From positions 73,346,001 through 73,410,000 of the forward strand of contig OX597833.1 in NCBI GenBank assembly GCA_951406725.2: a DNA stretch of 64,000 nucleotides, in the 5' to 3' direction. The stretch comes from Octopus vulgaris (taxonomy: Eukaryota). The position numbers and the translations under genes were made by a program. The notes under the pieces were generated by a model that saw only the letters and a list, made by a program, of their open reading frames with translations, had not been told where the DNA came from and did not search any database. Shown piece after piece: positions 24,992 through 55,707 of this stretch (positions within the stretch are counted from its first letter, which is position 1; each line of letters begins with the position of its first letter).

Positions 24992-25009
24992 TTATTTATT
25001 TATTTATTT

Positions 25010-25502
25010 AAGTAGTTGAATGAATTATCTTAGTATGGATAATTCGGTTAACCGATACCTGGGTAGCAAATTCACGTCAGAAAAACACGGTTGAAGCTAC
25101 ATGCCAAGGGCAGAGATCACGTACTTTCGTGTGGAAATTTGTGTGTTTTTTTAATACAAATAAATGAAAGAATGGAGTTGAACGACGATTTAACAAAATT
25201 CCTTTATTCTCAACATATGTTTCGAAGGCTGCATATTCCTAATTTCGAAGGAATAAGGGGTGCATTATGCCGCCTTCTCCCACACGGAGCCCATAGCGAT
25301 TATCGCTATGGGCTCTGTGTGGGCAGTCATCTAAAAGTTTTTGTTCATCTTGATGCTGACATAAGTTCCTTGTTTTTCCTGATGAGAAGGCGGCATAATG
25401 CATCCCTTATTCCTTCGAAATTAGGAATATGCAGCCTTCGAAACATATGTCGAGAATAAAGGAATTTTGTTAAATCGTTGTTCAACTCCATTCTTTCATT
25501 TA
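25010..25502. mobile_element. Fold-back hammerhead element (Penelope-like pLTR derivative)
   Basis: Inverted arms 25161-25279 / 25384-25502, a nested 22-bp hairpin at 25279-25323, and a one-sided tail 25010-25160 homologous (reversed) to 35425-35570. Confidence 0.8.
25374..25456 (+). ncRNA. Type I hammerhead ribozyme with extended stem II
   Basis: ttttc-CTGATGA-gaaggcggcata...tatgcagccttc-GAAAC-atat-GTC-gagaa. Predicted cleavage after 25451. Confidence 0.85.
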
Positions 25503-25549
25503 TATATATATATGTTCAACTCCATTCTTTCATTTATATATATACACAT

Positions 25550-29034: not shown

Positions 29035-29088
<54 letters not shown>

Positions 29089-29089
<1 letters not shown>

Positions 29090-29247
29090 TTTATTTTAAA
29101 CAGCAGAAAATTCAACAAAATCTGTTTTGTTGAATTTTCTGCTGCTTAAAATAAAGCATATTACGCTACCACTGGTATTTGAGTACTCTTTTTTCCACCT
29201 TGTTTCACATTTATGTGTTTACTCCGATATACATATATATATATGCA
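29089..29247. mobile_element. Collapsed fold-back element, same family as 36655-36878 but lacking the ribozyme
   Basis: 32-bp arms 29089-29120 / 29125-29156 around a tctg loop. The tail matches the reverse complement of 36655-36726. Confidence 0.8.
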
Positions 29248-29837
29248 TATGTAAATATACACATGTGTATGCAGTGGAATATATAGTCAGTACAAGGTGT
29301 TGGTGTGGCTGCGTGTATATTATTACAAGAGTTCATAGAAAGATGAAAGAATAAATTGAAGATCTATTTATTTACTACATAAAACTATATTTTATTCTAC
29401 TTTCGATGATGATACAAGGAATAAAATTATAGAATTTAGTTAAATGAAGTAATCTATGCAAGAAAGTTCAGAGATAAGCAATCTACAATAACAGCCAAGT
29501 GGTGGCTTTCTTTATGTCTGCTATAAGGCACAGAGAAATAGACGGACATAGTCAATTAGACTTAGAGCCATCCACGTCGTTGCTAAGACGCGGAAAGCTG
29601 AGTTAGCAAGCTGTTTTTATTAATGGAGCGCTAGACATTCAAGAAACTTCCAAGAGAAACGCTAGGCTTCTTGAATAAATAAGAATCACGTTTCGTGACA
29701 ACGTTGCTTCGTGACAACGATGCTTCGAGAAACTTAGAAAAGGGAGGTTACTCTATGATCTTTCTTGCAAGGGAGATCATTCAGCTATCTAGCTACGTCG
29801 CTACACATACATAGGCGCCGGTTTGGGTTGTGTGGAT

Positions 29838-32740: not shown

Positions 32741-33218
32741 TGTAGAGAATGGCTGGCTGAGAGGAAATTATACATATATTTATATTATATATCGCTGTTA
32801 TATATATTTTTGATTACATACTGTTACTATCTCAATGAATATCCTTTAAGTTCACTATTTAGATTCGTCTTTTCACTTAACAACACATTTCCTTCACTTA
32901 CCTCTTCGTTCAAACTCTATATTTCATCTTTCATTGAACTTTGCTTTTCTTTCTCTTTTCAACACAAACTTTCCTCTGCATATCTACGATCACGTTTCTG
33001 ACTCTTTATTTCATATCTCATTTCAGTTCATTTCATCTTTCCTCTGCATATCTGCGATGTCGTTTCAGACTTTATTTCAATTTTGCTTGAACTTACCTAT
33101 CCGTTCTCTTTCCGGCACAAACTTTCTTTTACTATCCACAGCGTATCTACGATCGTTTGAACTGACTACCTCTCTCATTATCGTCAACACTTACGCTCGC
33201 TCTCGTTCACTCTTTCAT

Positions 33219-33286
<68 letters not shown>

Positions 33287-33300
33287 ATCTCTGCAAGGTT

Positions 33301-33610
33301 AGGAATGTAGTGTATAGCTTACGATGTACTGAGGGACGGTGCAGAAGCATGACAACTATCTATATTGGAGAGACTGCACGCAGCATAGGAGAGCGTGTAT
33401 GTGACCATTGGTGAGAGCGCAAAGAAGGAAAAAGCTCGTCAGTACTCAACCAACGTGCTCAGGCAGAACACGGATGCTCGATTAATAGCATAGAGGTTAA
33501 GGTATTAACGCCACATGGAACTGACATGACACTTAGACATATCACAGAGGCTACACACATAGCAGTAGACAGACCGAGCCTCAATAGAAATCACGAATGG
33601 AACAGTAACA
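33301..33610 (+). pseudogene. GIY-YIG endonuclease domain of a Penelope-like element (one internal stop)
   Basis: RNVVYSLRCTEGRCRSMTTIYIGETARSIGERVCDHW*...EH...TLRHITEATHIAVDRPSLNR has the VVY..C..C..YIGET.R...R..H and R...EA..I....P.LN signatures. Not in the ORF track. Confidence 0.85.
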
Positions 33611-34554
33611 TCGACCACCACACCACATGACTAAAGGCAGAAGAGATGAGAAGAGATAAGCAAAAACTATAAAAAATCGTAAATGATACACAAAAACATA
33701 CAGGACAGTACACAATAGATATATATGCACTTACCTGTGATACTTATGAGAAATAAAGGTAGACGTATATATAAAAAATAAATATGTAAATAGATAAATA
33801 AACAAATATATAAATATATTTGTCACATACCTGGGATAAATATAAGATATAGAGATAGATAAAATAAACAAATAAATCTATATAAAAGGCATGGACACCT
33901 ACAACATACAAAGCGAACCCATACACACACACAAACACACAGAAGAAATTTCACGGACAGCCACAACAATGTCAACAACATGATTAACGACAGCGGCGGT
34001 GACAACGATGGCAATAACAACAACAACAACAACTACGAGCACGATGGCAACACTGTGGGTGAACACACACGGGTCATAGGACAGCAGCAGCAGCACAAGT
34101 GAGTGAGAGGATGGGGATGCTGAGGAGAAGTCCACACTGCTGCTAAGGACTATGACACACACATATATATACACACACGCAAGCACAAACACATAAATGC
34201 ATGCGCATATAAGGATACACACCTTAGAACAGAATGGAGTAAGTAGAGCAAGAACAGACACGAAAACAGTGTCGCTGAAGAGGTCACAGATGTGTGACGA
34301 AAGATTTCCGGACAATGGACATGAGTTAGAATATTAAAATAATATTAAGCGAGTGAAGAAAAAAATATATAGTGCGTGTGTTTATTTGCCCTCCCCGCCC
34401 AAATGACCATTCTGAAATACAACAATAAGAGGTATTGGTATCCAGAAGACCCAAGATGGGACTGAAGTTAGACGAATGAGGAGTCTATTGAAGGTCTTGT
34501 GTGAGCATGTATATGGTTTTGTTGTCTCATTTCAATTAACACACACACACACTC

Positions 34555-34605
<51 letters not shown>

Positions 34606-34608
<3 letters not shown>

Positions 34609-35027
34609 TCTTTACTCTTTTACTCTTTTACTTGTTTCAGTCATTTGACTGCGGCCATGCTGGAGCACTGCCTTTAGTCGAGCAAATCGACCCCGGGACT
34701 TATTCTTTGTAAGCCCAGTACTTATTCTATCGGTCTCTTTTGCCGATCTGCTAAGTGACGGGGACGTAAACACACCAGCATCGGTTGTCAAGCAATGCTA
34801 GGGGGACAAACACACACACACAAACACACACACATACACATATATACATATATATACATATATACGACAGGCTTCTTTCAGTTTCCGTCTACCAAATCCA
34901 CTCACAAGGCATTGGTCGGCCCGGGGCTATAGCAGAAGACACTTGCCCAAGATGCCACGCAGTGGACTGAACCCGGAACCATGTGGTTGGTAAGCAAGCT
35001 ACTTACCACACAGCCACTCCTGCGCCT
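34606..35027 (-). mobile_element. SINE family A, full length, young-looking
   Basis: Collinear with the 10993 and 52822 copies. Confidence 0.92.
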
Positions 35028-35095
35028 ATATATATATATATTTAGTGTAGGAAGAAATGGAGCTGAACGAAGACTTAACAAAATTCCTTTTTATT

Positions 35096-35181
35096 ATTTT
35101 CTACATATGTTTCAAAGGCTGCAAAGTCCCTAATTCGGATTGAATAAGGAGACCATTTTGCAGCCTTCTCTTCAGGAAAAT
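35096..35181 (-). ncRNA. Type I hammerhead ribozyme (mirror copy)
   Basis: The reverse complement gives attttc-CTGAAGA-gaaggctgcaaa...tttgcagccttt-GAAAC-atat-GTA-gaaaat. Confidence 0.85.
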
Positions 35182-35277
35182 CCAGGAACTTAATTCTCCA
35201 ACAAAATGCACAGCAAGCTTTTCGACAAACGCTCACGAGGAGCCCATGTGCATTTTGTTAGAGAATTAAGTTCCTGG

Positions 35278-35363
35278 ATTTTCCTGAAGAGAAGGCTGCA
35301 AAATGGACTCCTTATTCAATCCGAATTAGGGACTTTGCAGCCTTTGAAACATATGTAGAAAAT
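35278..35363 (+). ncRNA. Type I hammerhead ribozyme, intact core, 12-bp stem II
   Basis: attttc-CTGAAGA-gaaggctgcaaa...tttgcagccttt-GAAAC-atat-GTA-gaaaat. Predicted cleavage after 35357. Confidence 0.88.
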
Positions 35364-35567
35364 AATAAAAAGGAATTTTGTTAAGTCTTCGTTCAGCTCC
35401 ATTTCTTCCTACACTAAATATATAAAACTTCAAATTTCTGCACTAAGGCACGGATTTTAGACCCCATGGTCGTAACCTCAACCGTGCTTTTTCTGTTGTG
35501 ATTTTTGCTACCCAGGTATCGGTTTTCATTTGAATAATCCGTAATAAGATAATTCATTTATCTACTT

Positions 35568-35607
<40 letters not shown>

Positions 35608-35904
35608 ATATAATATAATATAATACAATTATGGTCCTGCAAAGCACCAGCTTCGCTACAAATAGGTTCGAATGAACCTCTAAACTATATAGAGCTCACT
35701 TAAAACAAGCATGGTAAAAGGCGAGTGGCGAATGGAAATTATGGGTCTTACCGCTATGGATATCGCAAAAAGAATGGCGGATATTTTAGAATCGATTTCT
35801 TGACTTGGCCAGGGGGCGCTTGTCCTTCAGCCAAGTCTACTGCAAACGAAGCGAAAATTTAAAAAATATTCACCTCACCATACTTGTTTGTTCGTGTGGA
35901 GTGT

Positions 35905-35971
<67 letters not shown>

Positions 35972-36654
35972 CGTGTGTATCATATGCTCCGCCTGCATCT
36001 ATATCTTCTACTTTTATTGTTCCTCTTTCGACATTCCGTTATGTCACTTGCATTTTTTTACTTTTAATTTAATTTTATTTTATCTTTATTTTTATTATTC
36101 ATAATCATTTCTTTCTTGCCAATCTTAATAGCATGCAGATAATTAACGTGCCATTTTGTCTCCTTATCTGTATACGGGCTTAATTACCCCAAAATTCTTG
36201 AATCTCCTACGAACGGATGAGGTTTTTTCTTTCTTTTTTTCCTTTTTTTCTTCTCTTTCTATCCCTTGAAGATGTTTGTAAATTTATTACCACGTATATT
36301 TGTCATCAAAATAGTATTCCCTATTCACTCCCTCAGCTCATTCTTATGCGTATCCATCCTTTTGGTCCCCTTCAGCATTCCTGTCACAACCTGGGAGCTA
36401 AAATGCAAGAAAGTATACTTATCCCTTAATATTTGATATTCAATTTTTCATCTATTCAATAAGACAATCAATACTTCATTTCATTTTACTATATCTGTTT
36501 TATTTATACTATATATTCTATATTCTACATTAATATTATAAAGAATATAAATAAAACATAAAAAACAGACAGAGTTGGAATTCCTTTGAATAATATATAT
36601 CCCTCTATACACAATCATACAAACCCCTTTATATATATATATATTATATATATA

Positions 36655-36873
36655 CCGGAATAAGCATATAAATATGAAACAAGGTGGAAAAAAAGTAGTC
36701 AAATACCAGAGGTAGAGTAATATGCTTTATTTAAAAGCAGCAGAAATTTAACAAAAGCTGTTACTCAGAGTTTCACGTTCCCGTTCATCGGACAGTTTTA
36801 TTAACAAAGCTGTCCGACGAACGGGAACGTAAAACTCTGAGTAAGAGCTTTTGTTATATTTCTGCTGCTTTTA

Positions 36874-36878
<5 letters not shown>
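36655..36878. mobile_element. Fold-back element with minimal variant hammerheads
   Basis: Arms 36727-36799 / 36806-36878 and a one-sided tail 36655-36726. Confidence 0.8.
36758..36795 (-). ncRNA. Minimal hammerhead with CCGAUGA core variant
   Basis: The reverse complement gives ctgt-CCGATGA-acg-ggaa-cgt-GAAA-ctctga-GTA-acag. The plus-strand mirror (36810-36847) is damaged (GAAA>AAAA). Confidence 0.7.
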
Positions 36879-36928
<50 letters not shown>

Positions 36929-37854
36929 ATAAATCTTCAGGTTTTTTTATTATGCTAGACGTCTAGTTTAAATTGATGTTGATTGATATCAGTTTCTACA
37001 CTCATTATTTAATTTAATTATATATATATTCTTTTCTACTCTAGGAACAAAGCCCAACATTTTTGGGGAGGGGACCTTCCCAAGTTAAATTTCTGATCTT
37101 ATAAAGTTATGAAAGCTTCCCTTTTAGCTAAATATCAATTATATTTAGCCTAACATTGATTTTATTTCATTTGGCAAAGAATTTCGCCTCATCATCAATG
37201 TTATATTTTCTATGCTGTGAGGTCACAATAAGGAAATAACCTAAGATGTACATAGTTATTGATTTCTTACAGGTTATTTACCTAATTAGAAAATAAGAAC
37301 AGCGTCTTAAAGTGTTTGAAGTTTGTTATATTTTAGCTTAACTTGGAAACGTTTATAGTACTTATGGAATTTAATGTCAGCTACTACAACTAAACGATCG
37401 GATTCAAAAGAGGCTAAAACTTTCACACTGTAGGTATTTATGTGTCTTTAAGTCATAGATTTTCGTAGCAGTGGATCTTTGCTCAGCACTAAATTATAAA
37501 GTCAAAGCCTTCAATCGCAGGCCACTTGGATTACTTTAAGAATATACCTATACCACCTATTAACCTATATATTAAAGTGCTTCTTGAGAAAGCCGAAGAC
37601 TTGGTGAGATGCATGCAATAGAAACTTTTTAGAGGCATGAAACATATAGTAGCTTGCATTTAAATCATGTATGTATTAAACATGTCTCTTACTGAATGCT
37701 GAATGGACTGGAGCAATGTGAAATCAAGTGTTTTGCTCCGGAACACAATACATTGCCCGGTTTAGGAATGGAAACCATAACCATGGATCCAACACTCTAG
37801 CCACGTACCCCAATTTTGTATATATATATATATATATATAAATCTAGTAAATTC

Positions 37855-38020
37855 AAAAAAGAACACAAAATGAACACCCGAGGACGTGGTTCATGTAAAG
37901 TATTAGCAAACGCTCAGGGAAGGAAAAGAAAGATGGTTTAACATTTCGAGCAGACGCTCTTCTTTGGAAACGGAGGAAAGTCCAGTAGAAGGGAAGACGG
38001 AAAAGAAAATCGCCAATGAT
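37855..38020 (-). mobile_element. Penelope-like pLTR fragment with degenerate minimal hammerhead (37936-37971)
   Basis: The reverse complement gives gttt-CCAAAGA-a-gagc/gctc-GAAAT-GTT-aaac. Flanks are homologous to 46140-46325. Confidence 0.6.
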
Positions 38021-45280: not shown

Positions 45281-45519
45281 ATTCGGATTTCTTCATACAT
45301 ATGTATGTATGCCCGTATCTATCGATCTATCTATCTATCTATCTATCTATCTACTTTCTTTCAATTCTTCCAATATCACATCATAACCTTTATCGCTTAT
45401 TCTGTTTGTTCTTTCCAGCATTATTCTTATGCTTTCATTCCGTAATTCCCCGCCCCTCTTCTCAATCTATCAACTTGTCCTAAATGTCTGTTCAACTTCG
45501 TTTCTCACAAAGTCGATTT

Positions 45520-45913
45520 TATTCTTAAATTACTTGAGGTCTTACAACAGTTTCCCCAAGTGATAGGCGAGTATGCCTTAATATGGGGTGTTCCATCATC
45601 AGAGACATGTAGATAACATATGAAAGAGCTAAACATGGAAAATTCGCCGAAGATAATCCATGAAATAGAAATAGAAGAGATTATGAGTTATTTTTTAAAT
45701 TTTCTTATTTCCTTACTCTCTACTCTTCTATTTCATTGCTTATTATCTTCAAATTTTCCATGTCTAGATCTTTTATCTGAATATTTCTGCGTCTAGATCT
45801 ATCATATGTTCTCCACTTGTCTCTGATAACGAAATGCCCCATATTCAGGCGTACTTGCCTATCACTTGGGATATCCCAGAAACAGCTGTAAGACCTCAAC
45901 TAATTTAAGAATA
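45520..45913. mobile_element. Older fold-back hammerhead element
   Basis: Diverged inverted arms (~45520-45680 / ~45720-45913). Plus arm gtct-CTGATAA...GAAAC-agct-GTA-agac (45819-45894); minus arm gtct-CTGATGA...GAAAC-tgtt-GTA-agac (45539-45606). Related to the 22989 motif. Confidence 0.72.
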
Positions 45914-46198
45914 ATATAAAATAATGTATATGACTTGAGATGCTTATTATGCCTTGGCGTTTGTTGTCCTCTTTTGCAAATATATATCTGCTAAATCGGA
46001 AGCCTAAAATGGATCCATACCTCCCGTCTCAGTTACGAGCTTGGAACTCTGATAGTCCATTACAGCACTCACTTACCCAGCGTACCTATTCGTTTTGATC
46101 ACAAGTGAACTAACATATAGATATATATGTGGCCGCGAGTGTATCGTTGGCAATTTTCTTTCTCCGTCTTCCCTTCCTTGGACCTTTCCTCTTTCTAT

Positions 46199-46234
46199 GT
46201 TTCTGACGAAGAGCTCCGCTCGAAACGTTAAATC
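46199..46234 (+). ncRNA. Minimal Penelope-type hammerhead ribozyme
   Basis: gttt-CTGACGA-a-gagc-tcc-gctc-GAAAC-GTT-aaat. The palindromic AACGTT stem III is typical of dimer-active minimal hammerheads. Confidence 0.8.
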
Positions 46235-46325
46235 CTCCTTCTTTCTTTCCTTTCCTGAGCGTTCAATAACACTATACTTGTTCTGCGTCCTCGCGTTGTT
46301 GTGTTTTCTCTTTGTCCATGTTTGA

Positions 46326-46480
<155 letters not shown>

Positions 46481-46570
46481 AGAGTTTTCGAAAAAAAAAA
46501 CAAAAGACGAAGACAGGTGGTGTACAAAACAAAGAGATATATTAGTATAACGCTCAGGAATACAAAAAGT

Positions 46571-46606
46571 CTTTTACATTTCGAACCTACGCTCTTCTAC
46601 AGAAAG
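46571..46606 (-). ncRNA. Minimal hammerhead-like motif, CUGUAGA variant
   Basis: The reverse complement gives cttt-CTGTAGA-a-gagc-gtag-gttc-GAAAT-GTA-aaag. Confidence 0.6.
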
Positions 46607-47866
46607 AGACACAGAAAAGAACGAGGATATAAACAGTACGCATGTATGTATGAATGTATACTTACATTCATGTATATATGTGTCCGTATATATTATTGAT
46701 TTCGTCTCAAAAACTATACATATACTTGCACCTGAAAAATCGAAGACATTTTGGAAGTCAAGGATCATATTACATTTTGGTTCATTCAAATTCATCTCTA
46801 ATGGAAATTCTTTGTTAACCAGTGTAATTATGATTGTGATGACGATGATAACGGAAGAGTATGGTTGATGATTGATCTGAGGTAGAGAATGACATAAAGA
46901 GTTATGACAACAGCGACGACGACGACGACGACGATGATGATCATCATCATCATAATGAAGAGGAGGAGAAAGAAGCGGGGAGAATGTGAGAGATGCTTGA
47001 TGTTGAAACGAAAGAATCGATGGATGATGTTGATGATGATGATGGTGATTATGTTGGCGGTGATAGTTGTGGTATTAACACGATGAACAACGATAATTAA
47101 TATATCGATAACAGCAGCAATCTTTTAATCAGCAATCGACAACTACAAGAAGAAGAATAGAAGCAAACTACTAATACTAAAAACAAGTAATAAACAATAC
47201 GTTGTGAATAACCAACAACACCACTACCTCCACCTCCACCACCACAATTACCACAACAACCTCAACCCCCACAACCTGCAAGCCACTACCTCCACCACAA
47301 GCACAACCATCAACACAAACATCACCACACTTCGCATCACCCCAACCAGCAACACCACAACCACCACGACAATAGCATCAACAGCAACAACAGCGTTGGG
47401 ATCAACTACAAAGTTGAAGAGAAAGAGATTGAGAAAATAAGAGAGAGAGAGAGAGGTGGAGAGAGGGGAGAGAGAGGTGGAGAGAGGGGAGAGAGAGAAA
47501 GAAAATGAAAGGGTAAAAGCGACTGAGATTAGAGATAAACAGAAGGAAAAAGAGAGAAAAGCGAGAGAGAGAGAAAACTAAACAAATGTTGCGTTCGAAC
47601 TTGTAAAATGTACAAGACATAGCCCCCTAGACGCACACACTACTAACACCAGGGCGTGCATGCACTTGTGCACACGTGTACAAATGCATCTGTTGGTTTT
47701 ATGCTAACATTTCAGTGTCGATCTGATCGCCAGTCTGTGTTTCTATTCATTAATTTCTCTATATAAAGTCCTCTCCGCTACGCCCACCCACTCACCTTAC
47801 ATATTCACTACTACCACACACACGTATACACTTGTCATACATTCATGCGTACATATATGGGTATGG

Positions 47867-51194: not shown

Positions 51195-51199
<5 letters not shown>

Positions 51200-52098
51200 A
51201 TTTCAGTAAAACAATTAAGATTCAAGTGAGTTCCAATAAATTCACATGAATGCGGTACTTAACTTAGATGCACCAGAAATCTTTATGGTATTAACCATAA
51301 AATAATGTGGGGTGATTATAAACAAGAAAAAAGCAACAAGAATGGATTAGTTGTTCAGTACAATTGTTTCATACGAAGAACAGATTTATTAAAAGCTGCA
51401 AATATTGCAGCAAATACAAGTGTCCCGTATTCATCAGCCAAAACACATATGAGTTTTCCAAACATCCTAGGGGGTGAGGCTACACTCATGAAGTATCAAA
51501 GAGAGTTCTATGAAAAGCAAAGTTAGATTGTAAGCAGACTTCAAATGTTCTCTAATGATGCACAGTTTTATAAAAGGTTTTTAAAAAAGTTTGTTAGCTT
51601 CATAGAAAAGGTAAATCCATCCATAATAATGCAGGTATAATTTCCGGAGATATGAGGAGAGATTTTATTCTCAGAGAAGATGAATGTATCCATAATAATG
51701 TAGATGTAATTTCCTGATATATGAGGAGAAGATGTTGATTACACTTCTATTCGTTTCACAAAACTACTATGTTGGAAGAAGAGATTGGCTATATCGGCTA
51801 AAAGAAGTCGCAAAAGAAGTCAGTGAAGCAGAAACAGCCCAAATAAGGACATTATGAGAGGAAGGGGTGTAAGTACACAACCTACAAAGTTTAGTTTATT
51901 TCTGTGGTGACAGAAAATCTAGGTCAGTGTTGCAGGAATCTAAGATTTATAAGAGAACGTTATTTTTGACCATCATACAGCTATTAACTGCCACTCCTAC
52001 AGAGTTAATGGCAGGATAAAGAATATAAAGAGAACAAAAGAAAGAATCAAAGTGGTCAAAGGCTATCAGTAGAGGAAAATACATTAAGAAATTTAAGG

Positions 52099-52129
<31 letters not shown>

Positions 52130-52576
52130 TGTTTCTATTTATACTAATGTTTATACATTGTAAGACAGACTTTAGGTCTATACCTAGAGGTCAATTAATT
52201 TCTATAGTAAAAGGTGTGAGAGTATTGCTTATTCAAAATATAGTGAAAATTATAGTGAAAATTTTTTATATGATTATTAAGGGAGTAGCATTACCTATTA
52301 AACTTAGAATAGAACTAGGAAGTATTAGCAATTTATTTGATTTAAGTTGGGTTAATTAAATTAAATTAAATTAAATTAACTATATAGTCAATTAAAATTT
52401 TGGCAACGTACAAATACTATTTGTTTCTTTGTGTTCAAAAACAGGTACAGTTAGAAAGAAAGAACACCAGTGGAAGAGCTGCAGTATTTGCTGCAATATT
52501 TGCAGCTTTTAATAAATCTGTTCTTCGTATGAAACAATTGTACTGAATATCTAATCCATTCTTGTTGCTTTTTTCT

Positions 52577-52579
<3 letters not shown>
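51195..52579 (-). mobile_element. Penelope-like element remnant with inverted ~97-bp terminal segment
   Basis: 51322-51417 is repeated inverted at 52483-52579. Tail 51195-51320. Both ends abut (TA)n. Confidence 0.7.
51354..51442 (-). ncRNA. Hammerhead ribozyme with ~55-nt stem II insertion
   Basis: The reverse complement gives ttgg-CTGATGA-atacg...cgtat-GAAAC-aatt-GTA-ctga. Confidence 0.72.

Positions 52580-52660
<81 letters not shown>

Positions 52661-54020: not shown

Positions 54021-55707
<1,687 letters not shown>

Follow-up and report, generated by a model that had tools for sequence, protein, structure and literature searches.

A lopsided inverted repeat with two hammerhead motifs, most likely a truncated Penelope-like insertion

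In Penelope-like elements (PLEs), an inverted 5'-truncated copy combined with a one-sided tail of 30-40 bp is described as standard by Craig et al. 2021 (PMC8557442), while head-to-head junction palindromes were described by Arkhipova et al. 2013 (PMC3846280), whose discussion prefers self-priming on an antisense template and leaves the question open. For the Anolis Poseidon element PAc, two internal reverse transcription start sites are given as defining the tail (Frangieh et al. 2024, PMC11167929), and in the same account the Anolis hammerhead required protein, and insertion in vitro did not depend on this ribozyme. Cervera and de la Pena 2014 (PMC4209133) described hammerheads paired across the two strands at distances of 100-700 bp, with no or low cutting by single motifs. 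In the experiments of Cervera and de la Pena 2020 (PMC7229834), axolotl motifs in which helix III is weak showed better cleavage as dimers. Retrozymes, as presented in the latter article and in bioRxiv 10.64898/2026.07.22.740005, are arranged as head-to-tail tandems and give rise to circular RNA. Finally, siRNAs from inverted Penelope copies are on record for transgenic flies (PMC3681739).

The locus compared here with these systems is a palindrome at positions 35035-35570 of a 64,000-nt stretch of DNA (the window), which consists of animal DNA rich in repeats, with remnants of LINE and mariner-like type. It is labelled A, and the other inverted elements of the window are labelled B to F (Table 1). 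We conclude with considerable confidence that A is a head-to-head inverted high-copy repeat without an open reading frame, with a hammerhead motif in each arm and lying in (TA)n, which most likely represents a truncated PLE pseudo-LTR (pLTR) insertion with a mirror arm likely made during integration. This reading is built on what is described below: two arms with their motifs, a lopsided layout, (TA)n at the ends, a sister copy, a high family depth and variable joints.

Table 1. Coordinates of the features of locus A and of the other inverted elements, in window positions.
Feature	Positions	Strand	Remarks
Left (TA)n of A	35027..35041	.	Closes the 3' end of a SINE-like repeat; overlaps the short-arm end
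Short arm of A (tail-less inverted copy)	35035..35212	-	
Type I hammerhead motif	35096..35181	-	Core start 35175; predicted cut after 35102
Spacer of A	35213..35248	-	Upstream continuation of the minus arm; no separate loop
Long arm of A	35247..35424	+	5' end 34 nt shorter than the minus arm
Type I hammerhead motif	35278..35363	+	Predicted cut after 35357
One-sided 3' extension (tail) of A	35425..35570	+	~146 nt; plus arm only
Right (TA)n of A	35570..35601	.	Followed by low-copy flank
Copy B, second member of the A family	25007..25509	-	Head-to-head like A, orientation reversed; hairpin centre 25301
Element C	51195-52584		101-nt inverted arms, 97% alike, ~1 kb apart
Element D	54021-55707		Large, head-to-head
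Element E	45516-45917		Older head-to-head pair; degenerate hammerheads, GAAAC-AGCU-GUA type
Element F	36628-36885		83-nt arms; degenerate hammerhead cores; tail ~73 nt

The arms of A measure 178 nt each, are separated by a gap of 34 nt and pair at 176 of 178 positions (mismatches at 35199/35260 and 35152/35307), which agrees with the initial annotation of ~178-bp arms with two mismatches. The fold has a z-score of -34.9, and none of 100 shuffles was equally stable. The same annotation spoke of a perfect palindrome; the layout is lopsided, with the spacer being part of one arm and the tail part of the other. The short arm stops 60-67 nt past the predicted minus-strand cut, in an internal AT-rich stretch and the left (TA)n, and at the opposite end the spacer and the start of the plus arm overlap by 2 nt (TG at 35247-35248). 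Since the spacer can be aligned with the upstream sequence of copy B (23/34 identical, or 51/71 over the whole upstream part), and since four of the 32 listed contig pieces from public runs continue from the left arm into the spacer and lose their fit at 35248, we regard the spacer as native minus-arm sequence. The tail of A matches that of B at 105 of 141 aligned bases, including a 21-nt block (35504-35524) that is identical in both.

The left (TA)n is likely the insertion target of A. The SINE-like repeat beside it (34602-35029), which may resemble octopus repeats, has further copies within the window. Runs of (TA)5 or longer make up 3.1% of the window, and no target-site duplication of A is readable, both ends being (TA)n. 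A TATATAAA lies at the arm end of A (35417-35424), and a donor-like site, CAG/GTATCG, lies inside the 21-nt block of the tail; judged from their letters, the two might correspond to the pLTR promoter and 5' intron as known for Penelope.

Read outward from the centre, each arm contains a 6-bp stem I (AUUUUC/GAAAAU), CUGAAGA, a stem II of 12 bp with a G-U first pair, and GAAAC-AUAU-GUA. The claim of one complete type I hammerhead per arm was thereby borne out as far as the motif is concerned (core CUGANGA, GAAA and UH; three helices, helix III having only 2 bp). On the plus strand, stem I is formed by 35278-35283/35358-35363, the core by 35284-35290, stem II by 35291-35302/35334-35345, and helix III by 35349-35356, the last consisting of 2 bp and a palindromic AUAU loop; an AATAAA is found 3' of this motif. 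A descriptor for hammerheads with a palindromic helix III gave five relaxed and four strict matches in the window, and on 20 block shuffles two relaxed matches in total and no strict one (20/20 without). Rfam yielded no match at gathering score in the window and no hammerhead family among 20 matches at E<=10, a failure that may be due to the long stem II insert. The miRNA-precursor models that had the top Rfam E-values on A were rejected, as they stay below their gathering scores and detect the long hairpin only. Across A and B, 95.9% of the helix cells are paired, versus 37-44% when the alignment is slid, with one compensatory change; covariation in the 4-row hammerhead alignment was not above that of shuffles (88/500).

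Other hammerhead-like sequences were met as well. A minimal motif on the plus strand (46195-46235, core 46203) and, on the minus strand, a degenerate counterpart (~46560-46610) converge on a microsatellite. A metagenome scan with a 21-nt hammerhead pattern gave two matches, which we attribute to chance: only ~21-25 bases match, and the one in L001 lies in a 377-aa ORF.

Copies A and B are ~75-82% alike. The centre of B is a perfect hairpin within ~7 nt of that of A and its short arm ends at the homologous site, while its tail-bearing arm is missing ~61 nt, including the 5' strand of stem I and the core. The four further head-to-head elements of the window (C, D, E and F) carry hammerhead motifs that are intact or decayed. 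Counted from the cut, the short and long ends lie at +60/+212 nt in A, +49/+201 in B, +36/+164 in C and +34/+107 in F. In these four of the six inverted elements, both ends fall on TA-rich runs and one arm exceeds the other by 70-150 nt; as for D and E, a (TA)5 run is absent from the 260 nt around the cut. Element C has a full hammerhead motif on its minus arm (core 51437), a truncated one on its plus arm, a tail of ~128 nt and (TA)n at either end, and the right arm of D carries a ~600-nt (TAT/CAT)n tract within an apparent hammerhead loop II. A tiny palindrome at 29084-29255 is related to F and has no ribozyme.

Four of the 24 listed public sequencing runs were compared with positions 34950-35800. 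The summed contig depth on A was 6,216-528,269 in run X1 and 48,740-516,895 in run X2, which makes the A family very abundant and is no measure of copy number; the right flank had a depth of 16.3 and 19.4, respectively. Among the 15 listed joints (17 were found), 12 lead from the antisense arm or spacer into the sense arm or tail at breakpoints other than those of A. The shorter side of these 12 has 20-29 letters, and such joints can arise from repeats; there is moderate support for other family copies carrying inversions of their own. The junction of A itself is bridged by no contig among the 32 listed of ~300,850, and no empty site of A was seen in the compared runs, where contigs break at (TA)n and 35560-35635 is skipped. 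A joint 35037 -> 35700, present in three runs with 21 right-flank letters, was rejected as the empty allele, as it misses the element end; joining the SINE-like end to the right flank, it is probably another locus.

The arms of A differ by 1.1% (95% range 0.14-4.1%). The alleles at 35385/35074 and 35294/35165 are common to both arms and in the minority in the runs, so both arms derive from one template lineage. Together with a change in the tail at 35439 that is nearly absent from the runs, these shared minority alleles make A recent within its family. If the rate of PMC13282606, where a distance of 0.09 is equated with 25 million years, is applicable to the host, A would be ~1.6 million years old (0.2-5.6). 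Arm identity is no clean clock, since the arms of D show an identity of 99%, 84% and 98% in successive stretches (matches/mismatches 198/1 in the central 200 columns, 107/21 in the middle 150, 87/2 in the first 100 outer columns) and arm identity can therefore be reset or mosaic; this patchiness, read from the alignment, suggests conversion tracts or mixed templates. The description of A as very young is plausible in view of its divergence, but arm identity does not date it cleanly.

Several features of truncated PLE pLTRs are found in A: a type I hammerhead with a short palindromic helix III, a head-to-head 5'-truncated copy, a one-sided tail and an AT-rich or microsatellite target. There is no open reading frame in A, which is not an autonomous PLE. 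Pfam searches detected no family in the six frames of 33300-37500 and nothing below E 0.09 in 21 frames around A, B, C and D; no reverse transcriptase or endonuclease ORF could be linked to the A family, whose descent from a coding PLE parent is putative. A decayed remnant of a GIY-YIG-like endonuclease with one stop lies 1.4 kb from A (33301-34320, plus strand). Its identity to P0001 is 38% (E 4e-9); among the look-alike clusters of P0001 there is one in which 48% of the members have GIY-YIG. The Pfam GIY-YIG model itself matches the remnant only at E 0.058. The remnant is followed by a hammerhead-like motif (~34270-34315) with a sequence different from that of the A family, to which the remnant is unrelated. 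The remnant, with its own hammerhead-like motif, indicates that nuclease-bearing elements of such kind are present in the genome.

For the insertion of A as a truncated PLE copy, we propose that proteins encoded by an element and acting in trans, a GIY-YIG nuclease and a reverse transcriptase, would have cut the (TA)n target. cDNA would have been primed at two sites of the element RNA, ~60 and ~212 nt past the ribozyme cut, one for each target end, and the two products would have been joined 5'-to-5' via the 2-nt overlap. Given that each arm of A holds sequence absent from the other, two templated events are favoured over a single fold-back. One-strand fold-back synthesis, disfavoured by a spacer in the tail-less arm and a tail in the other, needs a later 34-nt deletion between TG repeats. 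The ribozyme is likely inherited cargo that normally works, if ever, as a dimer or with the aid of protein in tandem transcripts, and in A it is probably inert. Read-through RNA of A would simply form one long hairpin, which could, without selection for this, serve as a source of siRNA or as a substrate for editing.

A tentative proposal, which we consider doubtful, is that such stubs record the mechanism of PLE inversion: on a short non-autonomous RNA whose 5' end is fixed near ATGGGCTC, reverse transcription would have begun at two priming sites with ~150 nt between them, one for either end of the cut target (twin priming), and each arm would have been copied on its own. If true, thousands of such stubs would permit a genome-wide test of the two-site model and of the unusually long tail, and would be a rich natural supply of perfect RNA hairpins. 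A alone matters little, as a common retroelement remnant. Should the family pattern hold (3' ends fixed at two points, one 5' pivot preferred, tails of 70-150 nt), it would offer a large natural data set on the inverted ends of PLEs, and the point worth following is that of tails several times the published length together with end points common to two divergent copies.

It is unlikely that A belongs to a retrozyme- or MITE-like non-autonomous element of ~360 nt that has its 5' end fixed near ATGGGCTC and either folds back there at each insertion or moves as a whole palindrome. Such a short element would account for A and B pivoting within ~7 nt of one ATGGGCTC site, for their short arms ending at one homologous site and for the spacer sequence being itself high-copy, but this pattern is based on two copies, whose centres differ: A has a 2-nt overlap with 34 nt missing, B a hairpin with ~61 nt missing. 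Moreover, one contig (record 28) runs 286 letters past 35248 with a different sequence. A MITE or foldback transposon is at odds with family sequence that extends 146 nt beyond the right arm, so that because of the tail the ends of A are not terminal inverted repeats, and with centres and breakpoints that vary. As for a retrozyme, the unit is not repeated directly within 33000-38000 or in the 15 joints that were listed, and neither these joints nor the window contain a head-to-tail tandem.

The initial annotation also suggested a built-in kinetic switch or self-silencing. Its geometry is correct by sequence, in that the antisense arm is transcribed first from either strand, and the predicted 178-bp pairing in read-through RNA would conceal the hammerhead. 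In the folding predictions, stem II is kept in RNA that starts at 35170 or later and lost when the start is at 35160 or earlier. A selected cis switch, in which the palindrome would keep the ribozyme inactive in read-through transcripts and active in those that begin at the centre, or else a palindrome kept to silence the family through hairpin RNA, could appeal to this geometry and this survival of stem II, to the siRNAs against inverted Penelope regions in transgenic flies (PMC3681739) and to the two-way TATA proposed for the rotifer pLTR (PMC3846280). We nevertheless consider such selection very improbable. In the whole palindrome, the active ribozyme fold lies 109 kcal/mol above the ensemble, so the read-through RNA of A would be off, without a reachable on-state. 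The complete monomer hammerhead accounts for 7e-3 of the ensemble when a 106-nt piece is folded and for 3e-4 when a lone arm is, in a model that omits the tertiary core energy, and helix III, modelled alone, is at +2.4 kcal/mol as a monomer hairpin and at -7.0 as an 8-bp intermolecular duplex. With its 2-bp, dimer-type helix III, a lone arm should cleave poorly, so that a cleavage test on it would be uninformative on the switch. Further points against it are that inversion breakpoints differ among family copies, that B is without the core in one arm, that the cores of F are degenerate and that neither constraint nor a central promoter was detected. With no on-state, varying breakpoints, the core loss in B and a layout that is a known PLE by-product, the kinetic switch is unsupported. 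The self-silencing part has a published counterpart in the siRNAs from inverted Penelope copies (PMC3681739), so that silencing is already known as a side effect. A selected on/off switch of this kind would be new, and nothing in the analysis favours one; a literature search through main texts, with few subscription papers, found no selected palindromic hammerhead switch, and a described family of the same sequence may exist.

Least credible of all is an assembly or read fold-back artefact, which would fit the unbridged junction at 35247 among the listed contigs and the trouble that inverted PLE structures are said to cause in assemblies (PMC8557442), but which is opposed by a spacer and a tail each unique to one arm, two arm mismatches, flanks that differ between the sides, an older copy B built alike and a right flank at single-copy-like depth in X1 and X2.

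The reading of A as a truncated PLE insertion can be set against each of the systems introduced above. Non-LTR retrozymes, as they are described, resemble A in being non-coding, ~300-400 nt long, low in GC and high in copy number, with a type I hammerhead of weak helix III, whereas A is head-to-head and without a tandem unit. With the metazoan PLE hammerheads of PMC4209133, A shares the type I core, the long helix II and the short palindromic helix III, and its two cores, 109 nt apart on opposite strands, fall within the 100-700 bp given there. Helix II of A, known by predicted fold, has 12 bp and an inner hairpin, in contrast to 7-8 bp in the S. mansoni motifs of that article. The Anolis element PAc (PMC11167929) shares with A a pair of 3' end points past the hammerhead and a preference for AT-rich targets, but its tail, of the 30-40 bp class, lies between reverse transcription starts inside the ORF start, and A is without a matching open ORF start. 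Compared with the EN+ PLE insertion units of PMC8557442 and PMC3846280, A differs in having no ORF, a tail of ~146 nt rather than 30-40 bp and no readable target-site duplication, and is alike in its head-to-head inversion, the 5'-shorter arm, the one-sided extension, the short overlap or palindrome at the junction and the AT-rich or microsatellite target.
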